64,000 nt of DNA from a phage: the sequence record PX915677.1, one strand, 5' to 3'. Made by a program: the position numbers and the translations under genes. Position 1 is the first letter of the stretch. The number at the start of each line of letters is the position of its first letter. Below are positions 1,106 through 62,642 of the stretch, in pieces. The notes beneath the pieces are model-generated. The model saw only the letters and a program-made list of their open reading frames with translations. It was not told the DNA's origin and did not search any database.

Positions 1106-1114
1106 TAATGTATA
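1106..1114 (+). promoter_or_regulatory. candidate phage-specific promoter element TAATGTATA
   Basis: 9-mer recurs 34-59 nt upstream of gene starts on the coding strand (1106+, 18161+, 29392-, 35956-). Confidence 0.4.
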
Positions 1115-18160: not shown

Positions 18161-18169
18161 TAATGTATA
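18161..18169 (+). promoter_or_regulatory. candidate phage-specific promoter element TAATGTATA
   Basis: ctaTAATGTATAtag 39 nt upstream of ATG 18208. Confidence 0.4.
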
Positions 18170-27488: not shown

Positions 27489-27787
27489 TATTCTATTCCA
27501 CGCTCTTTAAGAGCTTCTAACAATCCGTTGTGATTAGCAGCACATTCTGTGTACTGGTCCTGATACCACTCCAACGTAGTGGCTAGTGCTTTTCCTTGAG
27601 CACTCTCTAAAAGAGGTAGGTCAACCCTACATTCAGCTTTTAGGTTTGTTGGTAAGGGCATTGATTGCCTGCTGTTGTCGCTCGTTGAACAAGCTGATAA
27701 ACTAAAAGCTAGCAAAATCCCCGTACAACTCAATAGCTTTTTCTTTATATGCACACCTAGCTCCTTCCAGTGTATCATGAAAACCAA
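27488..27787 (-). CDS. lipoprotein (o-spanin candidate)
   Basis: Signal peptide KKKLLSCTGILLAFSLSAC with lipobox LSAC; short Cys/Pro-containing mature part. Confidence 0.4.
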
Positions 27788-28160
27788 GCCAAATAACCTT
27801 ATCCTCGAATCCTATTCGAGCAGTCCATTTGTTAACATCCTTCCTATACCCGACACCTTTTATGCCTGTTATAGAATTCTTCTGAGCAGATGTATTCATC
27901 TGATTCTGCGCATTGGTTGCTTTTCTTAGGTTAGTCCAAGAGTTGTTAGATTTAATCTGATCTTTGTGGTCAATATCAGTATCAGGGATTTCCCCTGTTT
28001 TTAAATACCAAGCCACTCTGTGCGCTTTATGCGCTTTTCCATTAAATCTAATAATAATGTATCCAGCATCTATCAAACAACCGGCTTCTTTTCCAGCAAA
28101 CCTAGAGTTCCATTGATTGCTCTTCTTTTCAGAGCTTCTCCATGTTAGCTTTCCTGACAC
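27702..28160 (-). CDS. HNH homing endonuclease with AP2-type DNA-binding domain
   Basis: HRVAWYLKTGEIPDTDIDHKDQIKSNNSWTNLR HNH_3-like motif plus GVGYRKDVNKWTARIGFEDKVIWLGFHDTLEGARCAYKEKA AP2-like domain. Confidence 0.7.
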   Translation of the reverse strand: MSGKLTWRSSEKKSNQWNSRFAGKEAGCLIDAGYIIIRFNGKAHKAHRVAWYLKTGEIPDTDIDHKDQIKSNNSWTNLRKATNAQNQMNTSAQKNSITGIKGVGYRKDVNKWTARIGFEDKVIWLGFHDTLEGARCAYKEKAIELYGDFASF

Positions 28161-28183: not shown

Positions 28184-28528
28184 CTATTCCTTCGATTTTA
28201 AAACCCTCTCAGCTTCTTTCTGTCTCTGGTTAAATAGAGAGACATACTCATCACTAGCGCAGACATTATAAAAAACTGGTTTAGTTTTCTCATAATGCAT
28301 CTCTTTATAAATGGTTTCCGTGTTCTTCTTCCAGTTAGATAAACCGGTAAGAACCCTCTGAGCAACTTCATCAGCTGCTCTATTTCTTTCAATCTCTAAC
28401 TCTTGTTGATGTTTCTCTTTGTCCAGATTACTGCTGTCTGTTTGATATTCGTTAAACTTCATACCACCAAAGAATACAAGAGCTGAGAAAACGATAAACC
28501 CTAAGTTATCACTTAATGTGTTTTGCAT
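28184..28528 (-). CDS. membrane-anchored coiled-coil protein (i-spanin candidate)
   Basis: N-terminal TM LGFIVFSALVFFGG then charged helical domain; start moved to ATG 28528 because the listed start lies inside the upstream terminator. Confidence 0.35.
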   Translation of the reverse strand: MQNTLSDNLGFIVFSALVFFGGMKFNEYQTDSSNLDKEKHQQELEIERNRAADEVAQRVLTGLSNWKKNTETIYKEMHYEKTKPVFYNVCASDEYVSLFNQRQKEAERVLKSKE

Positions 28529-28540
28529 GTTGTCTCCAAC

Positions 28541-28564
28541 GAAAAAAGCCACCCGGAGGTGGCT
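28541..28564 (-). terminator. rho-independent terminator (minus strand)
   Basis: agccacc-loop-ggtggct stem with U-tract on the minus strand (A6 on plus 28541-46). Confidence 0.6.
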
Positions 28565-28585
28565 AAGCTATAACAAGGAGAGTTA

Positions 28586-29332
28586 TTAGAATGGGCTATC
28601 GTTGTCGTCTTCGTAAGTAGAAGCAGGCTCTTTATCAATCGTAGGGATTGAAGGAGTAGCTTCTTTCTGCTCTGTTTCAGAAGCACGAGTAATTTCACGA
28701 CCAGCCAGAGGCATGTTCTTAGCGTCATTAGCTTGAGTAAGCAGGTTGCGCTGGAACGGGAACATCAGTTGATAGGATGCTACGTTCTCATCGGTTTCCG
28801 CATACGGTTCGAAGAATACCAGAGGACTACGAGCTTCACCAACTGCTGCACGATATTTGGTTGGGATTGGAGAAATGGTCTTGATGGAGTTTTTAACTTC
28901 ACCAGCTTTGTTAGTGTAAGAGTTAACCAGAATGTTAACAGGCTGACCTAACAGAACATCCTTGAACCAAGACAGATCACCTTTCAGTGCTTGAATGCTT
29001 GGGTCAATCATCTTGCAAAGATCAAGAATACCAGAGTTCTTAGCTCGTGGGTTTACATCATAGCTCTTGAACTGGCAAGCCGGACGTGGTTCTAATGCCT
29101 TACCATCGGAATCTTTACCAGTAGCATCAACACCAATCAGCTCGAAAGCCAAATCCATACGGAAAGCCGGATTCTTAGGAGTTACTGCTTTGGTCTTCGG
29201 GTCAATCCAAGGGTCACGATTGTGAACACCCAAACCTACTACACGAACGATACGAGCTTCGTATTCACCATCAGGGATTACATCGTAGTTGGATTTACGA
29301 GAAGAAGTTGCGATAGTTGGAATCATAGACAT
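28586..29332 (-). CDS. putative ssDNA-binding protein
   Basis: 248 aa with acidic C-terminal tail ...YEDDNDSPF ending in Phe as in SSB/gp2.5-type proteins; promoter motif upstream and terminator downstream. Confidence 0.45.
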   Translation of the reverse strand: MSMIPTIATSSRKSNYDVIPDGEYEARIVRVVGLGVHNRDPWIDPKTKAVTPKNPAFRMDLAFELIGVDATGKDSDGKALEPRPACQFKSYDVNPRAKNSGILDLCKMIDPSIQALKGDLSWFKDVLLGQPVNILVNSYTNKAGEVKNSIKTISPIPTKYRAAVGEARSPLVFFEPYAETDENVASYQLMFPFQRNLLTQANDAKNMPLAGREITRASETEQKEATPSIPTIDKEPASTYEDDNDSPF

Positions 29333-29391
29333 ATTTTAATTTCCTTATTTAATTTGAAAGATTGTTGCTCTCTTTGAGCGGTTATGTATAG

Positions 29392-29400
29392 TATACATTA
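29392..29400 (-). promoter_or_regulatory. candidate phage-specific promoter element TAATGTATA (minus strand)
   Basis: 59 nt upstream of SSB-like gene start 29332. Confidence 0.4.
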
Positions 29401-29463
29401 CGCTTATACCGATAAGAGTACTATATAATATAAGTATCTTTGGTAGTAGATATAACACACTAA

Positions 29464-29472
29464 TAATGTATA
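29464..29472 (+). promoter_or_regulatory. candidate promoter element TAATGTATA (plus strand, orphan)
   Basis: Same 9-mer on the opposite strand inside the 415-bp ORF-free region 29333-29748. Confidence 0.25.
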
Positions 29473-29748
29473 TATTGTATAGCTGATAAAGTTATTGCAG
29501 GCTTGTATATTGGGCAATTCACAGAATCCCTTGCAAGTACCGAAGGGCAGGAGCCACCTGCGAGATAAAAATAGAGAATTAAGGAATCCTTGATTTAGGT
29601 TGTAGGGACTCCTAGGGACTTTGATTCTCTATTTAAAAGAATATTAATTACTTATTACCTAAATAATTAACTAACTTACTTAAACCAAATTCAAGAATAA
29701 TAGATAAAAAGATTATTCCTAAGAAAGCTAAAAAGTAAAGGATATAAG

Positions 29749-29913
29749 TTACCATTCAAGTAAACCTTTAAAGTTAGATTGTTCTACTATCCTCTGATAA
29801 CGAAGATTAGAGTCAGCTTGTTTCTTTAACATCTCATTATATTTATCTCTGATAGAGTCTTTATATACTACAGGTTCTTTAAATAACGAGATCTTGTTCT
29901 TTTCTTCTTTCAT
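29749..29913 (-). CDS. hypothetical small protein
   Basis: Internal ATG of listed ORF 29749..29997, chosen to limit overlap with the phosphoesterase gene. Confidence 0.2.
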   Translation of the reverse strand: MKEEKNKISLFKEPVVYKDSIRDKYNEMLKKQADSNLRYQRIVEQSNFKGLLEW

Positions 29914-30382
29914 CGAAAACCTTCCTAATCTCTTGCAGAGAAACAGCTTTATAATTAATTTGCTCCATTGATGTACAGAAATATCTCCAATCATCAATTA
30001 CATGATTATGGGTATGAGCATAAATATTAAACCTTCCTCTCATTTCATCAGCGTGGATAGGAATATGAGTTACCCAAAACTCTTTATATTTATAATCACC
30101 AGAGATTCTACGGAAGACTTTCATCATATCAGGGAGAAGTTCTAACCTGTCATGGTTTCCTAAGACTAGATGCTTCTCTCCTTTTACTTCAGCGATGATA
30201 TCAAGGGCATACTTTTCAAACACCCAATCACCGGTAAAGAAGATTTTATCTCGCTTAGTTACATGATCAAATGCAGCTAGGATTGCTTTGTCATGTTCTT
30301 CGATGGTTTTAAATTGCTTACGAAAACTACAGATGTTGCGATGACCTAAGTGACCATCTCCTGCAAAATAAACTTCAGCCAT
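29879..30382 (-). CDS. calcineurin-like metallophosphoesterase
   Basis: GDGHLGH, GDWVF, GNHD and HTHNH motifs. Confidence 0.6.
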   Translation of the reverse strand: MAEVYFAGDGHLGHRNICSFRKQFKTIEEHDKAILAAFDHVTKRDKIFFTGDWVFEKYALDIIAEVKGEKHLVLGNHDRLELLPDMMKVFRRISGDYKYKEFWVTHIPIHADEMRGRFNIYAHTHNHVIDDWRYFCTSMEQINYKAVSLQEIRKVFDERRKEQDLVI

Positions 30383-30391
30383 AAAGACCTC

Positions 30392-30607
30392 TTAGATAGT
30401 GCACCCATCGCAAGTTAAATCACCTAGAAGGGATAGAGAAAGTAATCTGGATTGCTCATCACTATATAATTGATCAATCTCTTCTTTAAGTTTTGCCAAC
30501 TCTATGAAATTGATAAGTTGACCATGTTCAAGACAGTCTGTTTTTAGTATAAATAAAACTTCAGCGTCTGTTGAATCTTCACTTGAATATTTATCAATGT
30601 ATTCCAT
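30392..30607 (-). CDS. hypothetical small acidic protein
   Basis: 71 aa, about 22 percent Asp/Glu. Confidence 0.35.
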   Translation of the reverse strand: MEYIDKYSSEDSTDAEVLFILKTDCLEHGQLINFIELAKLKEEIDQLYSDEQSRLLSLSLLGDLTCDGCTI

Positions 30608-35975: not shown

Positions 35976-36713
35976 TTAAGCTTTCTTTTCCATTGCTTTA
36001 ACAATCGCCTTACAGAAACCAGAACGAACAATATCATCTGATTCACCATCTACAATCTCAGCAAACTCATACAGATCGTGTTCATCAATAAAGTTAGTAG
36101 CCCAAGTTAGACCACTCTCGCGACCACGCATATCATGCTGGTTTGTATCACCCATACAGAACAATTGAGAGGTTTCTCCCAATCGAGTCATGATGGAGAA
36201 GGCTTCATCCTTAGTTGTGTTCTGGAACTCATCAACAATAACAATAGCATCATTGAAAGAACGACCACGGAGATATTCCAGAGGTACAAACTCAATGTTA
36301 CCATTTCCGATTTGGCATTCATAGAATCCCTTACCATATCGCTGAGTAATAACATCAATGATAGGCATCAGGTAAGGCTCAAACTTCTCACGCATTCCTC
36401 CCGGAAGTAACCCAAGAGAGTTTCCCATGCCAACCGAAGGGCGACTCAGAATGATCTTCTGAATCTTACCACTCTTCAGTGCATCGATAACCGTGGAAGT
36501 GATTACAAAGGTCTTACCACAGCCCGCAGGAGCGTCTGTGAACACAACTTGTTTAGTCTTAATAGCATTGAGTAGCTCAGACTGAAACTGGTTCTGAGGG
36601 ACTACAGGCTTTGCTAAAACCACCTCTTCATACTCTCGCTTACCTTTACGAGTAACAAGTGCTTCCCGACGAAGGTCTTTCCGTGATTCTTTCCGTGATT
36701 GACGACGACTCAT
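35976..36713 (-). CDS. PhoH-like ATPase
   Basis: Walker A VFTDAPAGCGKTF, Walker B-like IVIVDEFQN; PhoH family size. Confidence 0.7.
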   Translation of the reverse strand: MSRRQSRKESRKDLRREALVTRKGKREYEEVVLAKPVVPQNQFQSELLNAIKTKQVVFTDAPAGCGKTFVITSTVIDALKSGKIQKIILSRPSVGMGNSLGLLPGGMREKFEPYLMPIIDVITQRYGKGFYECQIGNGNIEFVPLEYLRGRSFNDAIVIVDEFQNTTKDEAFSIMTRLGETSQLFCMGDTNQHDMRGRESGLTWATNFIDEHDLYEFAEIVDGESDDIVRSGFCKAIVKAMEKKA

Positions 36714-40532: not shown

Positions 40533-40604
40533 AACTCTCTCCTGTAAAATACAAATTCTTATTGTACTCTATATACATTTGAGAGTTATCATATCTACTA
40601 CCAA

Positions 40605-59487: not shown

Positions 59488-59563
59488 TGGTGCGCCCTAC
59501 AGGACTCGAACCTGTAACCAATAGCTTAGAAGGCTACTGCTCTATCCATTGAGCTAAGAGCGC
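59488..59563 (-). tRNA. tRNA-Arg (anticodon TCT)
   Basis: Hand-folded cloverleaf: acceptor GCGCTCT/AGGGCGC, D-arm GCTC-AATGGAT-AGAGC, anticodon loop CTTCTAA, T-arm ACAGG-TTCGAGT-CCTGT, encoded CCA. Confidence 0.8.
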
Positions 59564-60728: not shown

Positions 60729-61136
60729 GAATCCAGAAGCCTTCCAGTTTCAGAGCACCATTAGCTACTGCATCCATACGTTCAGGGCGGTTCATACGTT
60801 TGGTTGATACTTTCATACCTATCTCTCTTTGTTAGTGGAGGCATTATTGCCAGTTGATATAAGGGATAGCCCTAGTCAGTAGACTAATCCTGACCGCGTA
60901 CTCATTGCCGACCTTCTCTGCCTAAGAGTTCAGGTTCTAGAGCTATCTCTTATCCCAACTGGTGAAGACTCCCTACCCCTAGGAAGTCTCCTGAATCCCA
61001 AACCAATACGTACCCCTACATATCAGAAAGTCTTTCGAAAATTAACAGGTTTTAGTCTAACACCGGATGTTCGAGCAAGCTCTCCCTAGCGGTGTGGCAT
61101 ATGCCTGAATTAATAAGTTAATGAGGAACACCCTCA

Positions 61137-61164
61137 CATAGCCCTCTGATAAACACAAGGGCTA
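61137..61164 (-). other. conserved stable hairpin element (copy 2)
   Basis: atagccct/agggctat 8-bp perfect stem with 12-nt loop just after stop of 61175..61393; preceded by the shared 13-mer. Confidence 0.4.
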
Positions 61165-61174
61165 TAAGTCGGTG

Positions 61175-62356: not shown

Positions 62357-62642
62357 TGTTAATCTCCTGCTGCTTAGCAATAGCCACTCGTAAGTCTTCA
62401 TTAGCACGAGCAAGGCGCAACACTTCATGATTGAGGTTCTGAAGACGTTTGTTTCTGTCTTCAACTTGCATAATAAGATCGTTGAGTGTTACTTTAACTT
62501 TCTCGTTATACATCTCATCCACTCGAACTAGTGATTTATACATTCTCTCCCAGCTTGCTGCTTTGTTTCTGAGAACAATAAACCCTATAACGCTGATAGT
62601 TAAACAGCTTACAAAAAGGAATTTATATACTTCTAAAGTCAT
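62346..62642 (-). CDS. membrane-anchored coiled-coil protein
   Basis: N-terminal TM FLFVSCLTISVIGFIVL followed by heptad-rich helical region. Confidence 0.4.
   Translation of the reverse strand: MTLEVYKFLFVSCLTISVIGFIVLRNKAASWERMYKSLVRVDEMYNEKVKVTLNDLIMQVEDRNKRLQNLNHEVLRLARANEDLRVAIAKQQEINNEA

Follow-up and report, generated by a model that had tools for sequence, protein, structure and literature searches.

A predicted P68-type gp36 promoter and a conserved candidate structured RNA between two leftward operons of phiEco32-like phages

Introduction

Phage phiEco32 is a model of phage sigma-factor takeover, with structures of its gp36 and gp79 on RNA polymerase (RNAP). Host RNAP carrying the phage sigma factor gp36 uses promoters with the experimentally defined consensus tAATGTAtA (PMC8948821; PMC4331800), and transcription from a gp36 promoter starts 6 to 8 nucleotides (nt) downstream of this element (PMC8948821). 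Six such promoters have been published, i.e., the late promoters P6, P13, and P26 and the middle promoters P40, P58, and P68 (PMC8948821 text and Table S3; PMC4331800), and the bioinformatic promoter study searched only the gene-facing strand (PMC4331800). In the 2025 cryo-electron microscopy (cryo-EM) structure of RNAP-gp36-gp79 on P68, the N-terminal domain of gp36 reads −14A, −13A, −12T, and −11G, while its C-terminal domain reads the −35 region at −37G and −34A, the mutation of which abolishes transcription (PMC12276001). Here, we examine positions 29333 to 29748 of a 64,000-nt stretch of phage DNA from sequence record PX915677.1 (the window), which lie between two leftward operons, and identify in them a predicted gp36 promoter of the P68 type that faces rightward and is followed by a candidate noncoding RNA with four hairpins.

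Phage-encoded small structured RNAs are an already known kind of element. The phi29 pRNA and the T4 species 1 and 2 RNAs are phage-encoded, stable, structured, 120 to 170 nt in length, and made from their own promoter, and the lambda OOP and P22 sar RNAs are short noncoding transcripts with their own promoter that run convergent to a phage operon and overlap its 3' end. On the published gp36 map, all six promoters precede genes; a seventh promoter with a structured RNA, if true, would add a noncoding output to this map.

The 700 base pairs (bp) around the site are 97 to 99% identical to many phiEco32-like coliphages (DE5, WFI101126, SU10, NJ01, and phiEco32), all of which belong to Gordonclarkvirinae/Kuravirus. 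In phiEco32, the counterpart of the stretch is flanked by phi32_40 and phi32_42, and the annotated 35-residue phi32_41 lies within it; in the following, we refer to the products of the corresponding genes as gp40 and gp41. Phages of the genera Kuravirus, Suseptimavirus, and Nieuwekanaalvirus are held in therapy collections. As described below, these genera keep the 3' part of the candidate RNA unit 96% invariant, a sign of a strongly selected function that is missing from current annotations.

Results

A complete predicted gp36 promoter of the P68 type faces rightward

A reading of the window from its letters and open reading frames (ORFs) alone, hereafter the sequence-only reading, had reported divergent copies of the promoter motif TAATGTATA, and both copies are present, one on each strand (Table 1). 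That reading had assigned the minus-strand copy to the next gene as its promoter, and rightly so: the copy is P40, a gp36-dependent middle promoter that has been published (PMC8948821 text and Table S3; PMC4331800). Thus, P40 and the motif are already known. The palindrome ATGTATAGTATACAT is also present, at 29384-29398 and, thus, one base away from the 29385-29399 first assigned to it. In the entire window, TAATGTATA has 5 exact copies compared to 0.67 expected, and 0 of 100 shuffles reached 5. The plus-strand copy lies outside the six published promoters and, as an exact TAATGTATA, conforms to the tAATGTAtA consensus of gp36 promoters.

When the promoter copies were aligned on the 9-mer, the region from −40 to −26 read ATTGGTAGTAGATAT at P68 and TTTGGTAGTAGATAT at the plus-strand copy, i.e., the two share a 14-nt identity at identical spacing. 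The remaining promoters in the window differ upstream from this P68-type box, and TGGTAGTAGATA occurs in exactly two copies in 64 kb, at P68 and at the rightward promoter. All six bases contacted by gp36 (−14A, −13A, −12T, −11G, −37G, and −34A) are in place at the rightward promoter. TGGTAGT can, therefore, be assigned as a conserved −35 element common to two promoters, which fits the cryo-EM contacts, while earlier work had described a single-element promoter. Unlike the published gp36 promoters, the rightward promoter is followed by no conserved plus-strand ORF. Judged by these elements, the plus-strand copy is a complete predicted gp36 promoter of the P68 type. It is apparently unreported; the literature searched, which did not cover the primary 2012 transcription study, holds no mention of a seventh gp36 promoter, a P68-type box, or an RNA family at this site.

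The upstream sequences also differ between promoters elsewhere in the window. The late promoters P13 and P26 have TAAGACCTA in common at −38 to −30, unlike the TTGGTAGTAGATAT of P68 and the rightward promoter, and all six promoters compared have an A at −34. The upstream element may, thus, distinguish promoter classes.

For comparison among relatives, the region was retrieved from 18 diverse isolates of the three genera and from IMG/VR and metagenome contigs, and more distant relatives were reached through gp40 homologues. In an alignment of 19 genomes, the 9-mer is invariant at 9 of 9 positions and the box at 10 of 14, while the spacer from −25 to −16 is invariant at 0 of 10 positions (mean pairwise identity 0.50). 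Across 61 loci, TGGTAGT is invariant, and the 9-mer is TAATGTATA in 54, TAATGAATA in 5, and GAATGTATT and TAATATATA in 1 each. TGGTAGT and AAT(G) are retained even where gp40 is only 71 to 81% identical. At the level of sequence comparison, this pattern of islands and spacer is the mark that selection leaves on a bipartite promoter, and invariant islands around a freely varying spacer are not attributable to recombinational homogenization. The locus with GAATGTATT in its rightward promoter (L054) indicates that the first position of the element is flexible. The sequence-only reading had staked its proposal in part on sequence conservation of the region, and the box, the 9-mer, and the 3' domain described below are all conserved among relatives.

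Some relatives depart from the common arrangement. The metagenome contig ERZ1034915 NODE-75 (L033) carries TAATATATA, in which −11G is changed to A, and its RNA region is otherwise intact; because gp36 contacts −11G, expression in this phage may be weakened or lost. In EcM-vB1 (L005, 786-929) and also in L037, L041, L052, and L058, ∼150 bp are inserted between P40 and the rightward promoter. This insertion encodes a minus-strand ORF of 47 residues, the ATG of which overlaps the −35 box, which now reads TGGTAGTATATC. A Logan contig (SRR28250349; L055) with gp40 at 75% identity has a box-plus-AATG-like sequence that runs directly into a hairpin of 5 bp and a stretch of U (ACAGU...ACUGUUUUUUCUUU). 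The contig stops at this point, and the RNA may have been replaced in that lineage.

Table 1. Promoter elements, RNA features, and neighboring genes in the window
Feature	Positions	Strand	Remarks
Rightward gp36 element TAATGTATA	29464..29472	+	−15 to −7; outside the six published promoters
Upstream (−35) box TTGGTAGTAGATAT	29440..29453	+	−40 to −26; contains −37G and −34A
H1, AUAGCU-GAUAA-AGUUAU	29479..29495	+	5'-terminal hairpin; begins at predicted start A29479
Conserved linkers UUGCA; GAAGGGC	29495-29499; 29542-29548	+	flank H2; UUGCA invariant
H2	29500..29541	+	variable central hairpin domain, class A here; between the conserved linkers
Hc, GCAGG-AGCCA-CCUGC	29547..29561	+	one compensatory change
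H3	29569..29634	+	long 3' hairpin, 66 nt; preceded by A-rich linker
P40 element TAATGTATA	29392..29400	-	published middle promoter; predicted start near 29385; overlaps palindrome 29384-29398
gp40 5' untranslated region hairpin, GCUC-AAAGA-GAGC	29367..29379	-	+7 to +19 of the P40 transcript
P13 copy	1106-1114	+	late promoter
P26 copy	18161-18169	+	late promoter
P58 copy	35956	-	middle promoter
P68 element AAATGTATA	40572-40580	-	middle promoter
gp40	28586..29332	-	248 residues; first gene of the P40 operon; phi32_40 in phiEco32; PHROG 6599, function unassigned
gp41	29648..29755	-	35-residue hydrophobic protein MVTYILYFLAFLGIIFLSIILEFGLSKLVNYLGNK; phi32_41; outside the RNA unit

The predicted RNA has a conserved architecture with covarying hairpins

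With the published numbering (PMC12276001), the predicted start of the rightward transcript is A29479, i.e., 7 nt after the 9-mer, and from this position on, relatives that carry the element have one architecture in common. The sequence-only reading had suggested a small RNA for the plus-strand copy and folding and covariation in related phages as a check. The predicted folds agree with this, with covariation in H1 and compensatory changes in two more hairpins. Comparison among relatives gives good support to a small RNA, with a complete predicted promoter, covarying hairpins, and a near-invariant 3' domain.

H1 has 9 to 10 sequence forms, including AUAGCU/AGUUAU, AUAGCU/AGCUAU, AUAGA/UCUAU, AGAGUU/AACUCU, AUAGUU/AACUAU, AUCUCU/AGAGGU, and ACAUC/GAUGU, and every form is a hairpin of 5 to 7 bp from +1. 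In a set of 24 distinct sequences, both sides change in two pairs (UA:22/GC:2 and CG:19/UA:3/AU:2) and a third switches between G-C and G.U (GC:14/GU:10); the covariation score was reached in 0 of 500 shuffles. H1 probably stabilizes the 5' end of the transcript. It resembles the hairpin in the gp40 leader, which itself covaries (GCUC/GAGC, GUUCA/UGAAC, and GUCC/GGAC among relatives, which are compensatory changes), so that the P40 transcript and the predicted rightward transcript both carry a 5'-proximal hairpin.

H2 exists in at least 4 unrelated classes of 33 to 68 nt, each with the same linkers on either side and each with a hairpin fold, and compensatory changes occur in class B (CUG/CAG to CCG/CGG) and in class C (two pairs). 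In Hc, the loop is AGCCA or AGACA among relatives, and the stem in L054 is the compensatory GCUGG/CCAGC. RNAfold and RNAalifold also proposed a long-range helix, P2 (UUGCAGG with CCUGCGA), which has a mismatch in class B; we rejected P2 because L054 breaks it, yet keeps the competing local Hc by compensatory change. H3 has arms of 14 nt that are 93% complementary, forms on the plus strand a duplex of 16+3+4 bp, and holds both TAGGGACT repeats; 58 of its 66 positions are invariant, with the variation in the predicted loops.

The 3' domain as a whole (29542-29634) is invariant at 84 of 93 positions, with a pairwise identity of 0.95 to 0.98, compared to 0.72 for the adjacent gp40 codons and 0.68 for the region upstream of P40, and its few changes are confined to predicted loops. 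It is still ∼96% identical in contigs in which gp40 is at 71% identity. Across the loci L001-L076, the H1 form, the H2 class, and the type of 3' domain (with or without UA and G bases at the apex of H3) appear in many combinations, which points to repeated recombination within the RNA gene at the UUGCA and GAAGGGC linkers.

H3 doubles as the predicted terminator of the leftward operon upstream

Read leftward, the H3 palindrome is followed by the U tail UUUUUAUCUC (29568-29559), which 25 of 29 variants retain. The distance from the gp41 stop codon to the base of H3 (29634) is ∼13 nt and, in phages without gp41, H3 lies just past the stop codon of the phosphoesterase gene. Thus, leftward H3 has the features of a terminator, i.e., an outer stem of 11 bp, the UUUUUAUCUC tail, and a nearby gp41 or phosphoesterase stop codon, and a hairpin past a stop codon with a conserved UUUUUAUCUC identifies H3 as the intrinsic terminator for the leftward operon that lies upstream. 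Owing to its loop of more than 8 nt and its AU-rich stem base, H3 was not called by a simple terminator scanner. P40 restarts leftward transcription 180 bp beyond this terminator. In that a single palindrome between A and U tracts would serve two convergent units, H3 is like bidirectional intrinsic terminators; it differs from the usual ones by its length of 66 nt, its AU-rich base, its invariant sequence, and its weak rightward U tract.

Conservation stops at H3, past which the gene content varies from phage to phage. Therefore, the selected feature lies within 29440-29637. The AT-rich DNA beyond H3 (21 to 26% GC, 29600-29800) is gp41 coding sequence, and it is missing or replaced in Paul-type and other relatives.

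Strand, coding capacity, and distribution

Four lines of sequence evidence point to a plus-strand RNA. On the minus strand, A.C mismatches would replace the G.U pairs of H3 and those that H1 has in 10 of the 24 sequences. The folding energy is −45.8 kcal/mol (z −2.2) for the plus strand and −35.3 kcal/mol (z −1.4) for the minus strand, and for H3 alone −23.5 and −18.2 kcal/mol, respectively. Finally, the GC skew is positive over 29300-29650, the reverse of the surrounding minus block, and in this genome the sense strand is G-rich.

The sequence-only reading described the stretch as a 415-bp ORF-free, noncoding region. This holds for 29333-29647; by contrast, 29648-29755 is occupied on the minus strand by the conserved gene for the 35-residue gp41, so that the true noncoding gap is 29333-29647 (315 bp) and the plus-strand motif is followed not by ∼280 bp without an ORF but by ∼175 bp before the antisense side of gp41 starts. 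Its rank as the longest such stretch in the minus block (23-64 kb) depends on the threshold: judged by the absence of minus-strand ORFs of at least 40 residues, it is the longest (416 bp, 29333-29748), whereas at 50 residues 61 kb holds a longer one (60729-61174), and the rank is, therefore, not robust. Short ORFs of 32 to 37 residues in the gap have no ATG start and are broken in relatives by indels of 1 to 3 nt and by replacement of the central segment. In some records, spurious "hypothetical proteins" are set over the RNA element.

In searches for known RNAs, a scan of 28500-30500 against Rfam at a permissive E-value gave one chance-level snoRNA match outside the element, and ARAGORN found no tRNA or tmRNA at the element, the sole tRNA in the window being tRNA-Arg(TCT) at 59488-59563. 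Features typical of Hfq-dependent small RNAs were not found, i.e., there is no U tail of at least 6 nt after H3 and no complementarity beyond 11 to 16 nt elsewhere in the window. CsrA-type GGA motifs (4 in the 3' half, ∼2 expected), Shine-Dalgarno-like motifs, and a mini-ORF (UUG AUU UAG) were not significant or conserved enough. A search of the window for a trans target or a second copy using short-word blastn gave as best matches 36317-36332 and 36433-36442 in a gene for a 245-residue protein; these are in the same sense and at chance level, and we rejected them.

In blastn searches of 50,697 phage records, the element is restricted to 99 Escherichia and Shigella phiEco32-like phages. It gave no blastn match in 5,426 Escherichia coli genomes, a search that is insensitive to short seeds, and a degenerate H3 pattern had no exact match in 185,579 bacterial and archaeal species genomes (one genome per species). 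A pattern scan of IMG/VR returned 5 contigs only, of which 4 are known isolates, and the metagenome scan returned 6 true matches together with 8 chance matches in GC-rich contigs. The next clade out, in which gp40 is 67 to 70% identical (L029-L031 and L061), lacks the element, and its intergenic region is short and different. Logan/ENA assemblies queried with gp40 yielded only full-length genome contigs and no transcript-like contigs, and the literature searched, outside of which lie the two primary phiEco32 papers, contained no noncoding RNA or RNA-seq study of these phages.

Discussion

Altogether, we favor, with a probability of about 0.62, a model in which this locus is a compact control region that combines P40, a back-to-back gp36 promoter of the P68 type, a noncoding RNA of ∼155 nt with four hairpins, and a shared terminator. 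In this model, gp36, helped by gp79, would appear at middle times, and RNAP-gp36 would then fire in both directions from the region. P40 would restart leftward transcription into gp40 and on to the sigma gene, while the rightward promoter, which has no gene behind it and a predicted start 94 bp from that of P40, would give rise to an RNA of ∼155 nt that begins at A29479, is shielded by the 5' hairpin H1, and ends at or near H3. The two convergent units would use one terminator, the H3 palindrome. The working part of the RNA would be the invariant 3' domain (Hc, the A-rich linker, and H3), and H1 and H2 would serve only in folding and stability, with any folding sequence being tolerated. Sequence comparison shows conserved promoter elements, hairpins that covary, a bias toward one strand, and a lack of coding capacity; we infer the synthesis of this RNA, its end point, and its role.

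The rightward promoter shares with P68 and other gp36 promoters the class of the 9-mer, the 14-nt −35 box, the spacing, and the contacted bases, and by analogy with P68 it would belong to the middle class. Unlike the published gp36 promoters, it points against the surrounding genes with no ORF downstream, and it is known here from sequence. Its predicted product resembles the phi29 pRNA and the T4 species 1 and 2 RNAs in being phage-encoded, structured, and of comparable size with its own promoter; unlike the phi29 pRNA, it matches neither the pRNA model nor any other model in Rfam. Phages of the phiEco32 type package their DNA with a conventional terminase.

The 3' domain is invariant across phages with proteins that differ by 30%, suggesting that its partner is itself invariant. 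Because this domain tolerates almost no change, pairing with an antisense strand in cis is not a sufficient explanation. We suggest that the 3' domain would act through such an invariant partner, e.g., a factor from the host or a strongly conserved protein of the phage, and not as a simple antisense RNA, and from these patterns of conservation we favor a factor-binding or otherwise trans-acting stable RNA. A tentative extension of this idea, which we hold to be possible although on balance improbable, is that the RNA is a phage-sigma-dependent effector in which the 3' domain is a decoy or sponge for a host or phage factor or a replication primer or activator, and in which H2 is a determinant of specificity or compatibility among co-infecting relatives.

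Several points weigh against this model. The rightward tail after H3 is UAUUUAAAA, and AUUAAAAU, UUUAAAAC, or AAUUAAAA in relatives, which is a poor tail for an intrinsic terminator although the hairpin is strong. This weak and variable tail makes the 3' end of the rightward RNA uncertain; from the sequence, transcription may stop inefficiently at H3, the RNA may be processed there, or read-through may continue into the antisense side of gp41. The helices of H3 never vary, so that its fold is without support from covariation, and two H3 folds fit equally. The invariance of the 3' domain could in part stem from its role in the leftward terminator or from frequent recombination at this mosaic junction. 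No target or partner was found in the word search of the window or in the blastn search of E. coli genomes, the latter being blind to short seeds. In L033, TAATATATA should weaken the promoter, and the promoter should, then, not be indispensable in every genome. Finally, the 2012 transcription study may have tested the plus-strand site and found it silent or may have already noted it.

Other explanations account for part of these data. An antisense or small RNA was among the options of the sequence-only reading, and a rightward RNA that acts in cis as an antisense RNA or insulator, like lambda OOP, would meet the leftward operon at the shared hairpin and pair with leftward 3' ends or read-through tails, leading to RNase III cleavage or to blocked read-through into P40, so that the gp40-gp36 operon would depend on P40 alone. 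We consider this unlikely. The convergent geometry, the shared palindromic terminator with the gp41 stop codon ∼13 nt from H3, the conserved leftward U tail, and an H3 duplex of 16+3+4 bp that is long enough to be an RNase III substrate would all be expected from it, and the weak plus-strand tail would permit read-through antisense to gp41 or the phosphoesterase gene. However, automatic pairing in cis needs neither 96% invariance nor conserved loops, the conserved block stops at H3 while the genes beyond vary by phage, and a leftward transcript that terminates would contain none of H1, H2, and Hc, which compensatory changes nevertheless preserve. Similarly, OOP and sar are 69 to 77 nt in length, made by the host sigma-70 enzyme, and antisense to coding or ribosome-binding sequence, whereas the RNA predicted here is ∼155 nt, phage-sigma-dependent, overlaps the terminator only, and has an invariant domain that an antisense RNA would not need. 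The antisense option, thus, applies to the shared terminator hairpin or to read-through into gp41 and not otherwise. The same reading had proposed an origin-like region, and a transcription-activated replication origin, at which a rightward structured primer or R-loop RNA would start DNA synthesis beside a putative single-stranded DNA-binding protein (SSB) gene, would be reminiscent of the T7 primary origin, T4 oriF and oriG, and ColE1 RNA II, in which a phage or middle promoter makes a structured noncoding transcript near replication genes. Here, too, a middle-class promoter that has no gene of its own is oriented against the surrounding genes and lies close to the midpoint of the genome (∼36.6 kb of 77.5 kb in phiEco32), the gene next to it may encode an SSB with an oligonucleotide-binding (OB) fold, the transcript is G-rich and structured, and DNA of 21 to 26% GC follows (29600-29800). 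Unlike in the T7 and T4 origins and ColE1 RNA II, this downstream DNA is not a conserved AT-rich unwinding element but coding sequence of gp41 that is absent or replaced in relatives. Moreover, the G clusters are shorter in the Paul type, the GC skew is unchanged at 29.5 kb, and no iteron or initiator-site pattern was identified besides the TAGGGACT repeat pair inside H3. Accordingly, the origin-like option finds no specific support, and we regard it as quite unlikely.

The mosaic breakpoints at the ends of the block, i.e., the presence or absence of gp41 after H3, the ∼150-bp insertion between the promoters, and the shuffled types of H1, H2, and 3' domain, are what a terminator-promoter cassette would show that acts only at the level of DNA, is homogenized by recombination, and links mosaic modules at crossovers; the rightward promoter would then be incidental or a helper of P40, e.g., by supercoiling between divergent promoters. 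In T4-type PeSL cassettes, a conserved promoter and a stem-loop likewise lie at recombination breakpoints; unlike the element described here, PeSLs measure ∼50 to 70 bp, use early promoters of the sigma-70 type, and come without a covarying RNA of several hairpins. Homogenization cannot yield invariant islands of 9 and 12 nt around a free 10-nt spacer, compensatory changes in three hairpins, or a hairpin fixed at the predicted +1, and the G.U pairs indicate a plus-strand RNA, making such a cassette very doubtful as the explanation. A hidden gene for a small protein on either strand would agree with the ORFs of 32 to 37 residues and with the hypothetical proteins annotated here in some records; because these ORFs lack an ATG, are broken by indels of 1, 2, and 3 nt and by replacement of the central segment, and because conservation tracks the hairpins and not codons, we see hardly any chance that such a gene exists.

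Neighboring genes and other features of the window

The sequence-only reading had called gp40 SSB-like. Weak OB-fold matches of its AlphaFold model agree with this, whereas gp40 has no Pfam or Protein Data Bank (PDB) sequence match and its PHROG has no assigned function. The model (26 homologues; predicted local distance difference test score 82, predicted template-modeling score 0.75) has a β-rich core and a disordered acidic tail that ends in DDNDSPF. Foldseek gave weak matches, mostly to OB-fold single-stranded DNA-binding proteins (PrgE, bacterial SSBs, PriB, and RPA), the best being PrgE with an E-value of 8.7e-4 and template-modeling scores of 0.29/0.50. Judged from this model, gp40 is plausible as an OB-fold single-stranded DNA-binding protein. 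Just downstream of the gp40 stop codon (28586), a canonical terminator, AGCCACC-UCCG-GGUGGCU followed by UUUUUUCG, is present on the minus strand at 28547-28564, and it overlaps the 5' end of the next minus-strand ORF (28184-28552).

gp41 matches PHROG 24970 with an E-value of 2.7e-24, and its ORF has conservative substitutions in most relatives. It is missing from Paul-type phages, and a 24-nt deletion together with a frameshift disrupts it in EcoN5 (L015) and PE006 (L048), indicating that this small membrane protein is dispensable.

A further near-consensus gp36-type element, GAATGTATA, lies in the early region at 62537-62545 on the minus strand and is without a P68-type box. Between the gp39-like and gp38-like genes, the minus strand carries an ORF of 152 residues for an HNH/AP2-type homing endonuclease (27702-28160), which is absent at that position in phiEco32, present in one metagenomic relative (L072), and looks like a mobile insertion.

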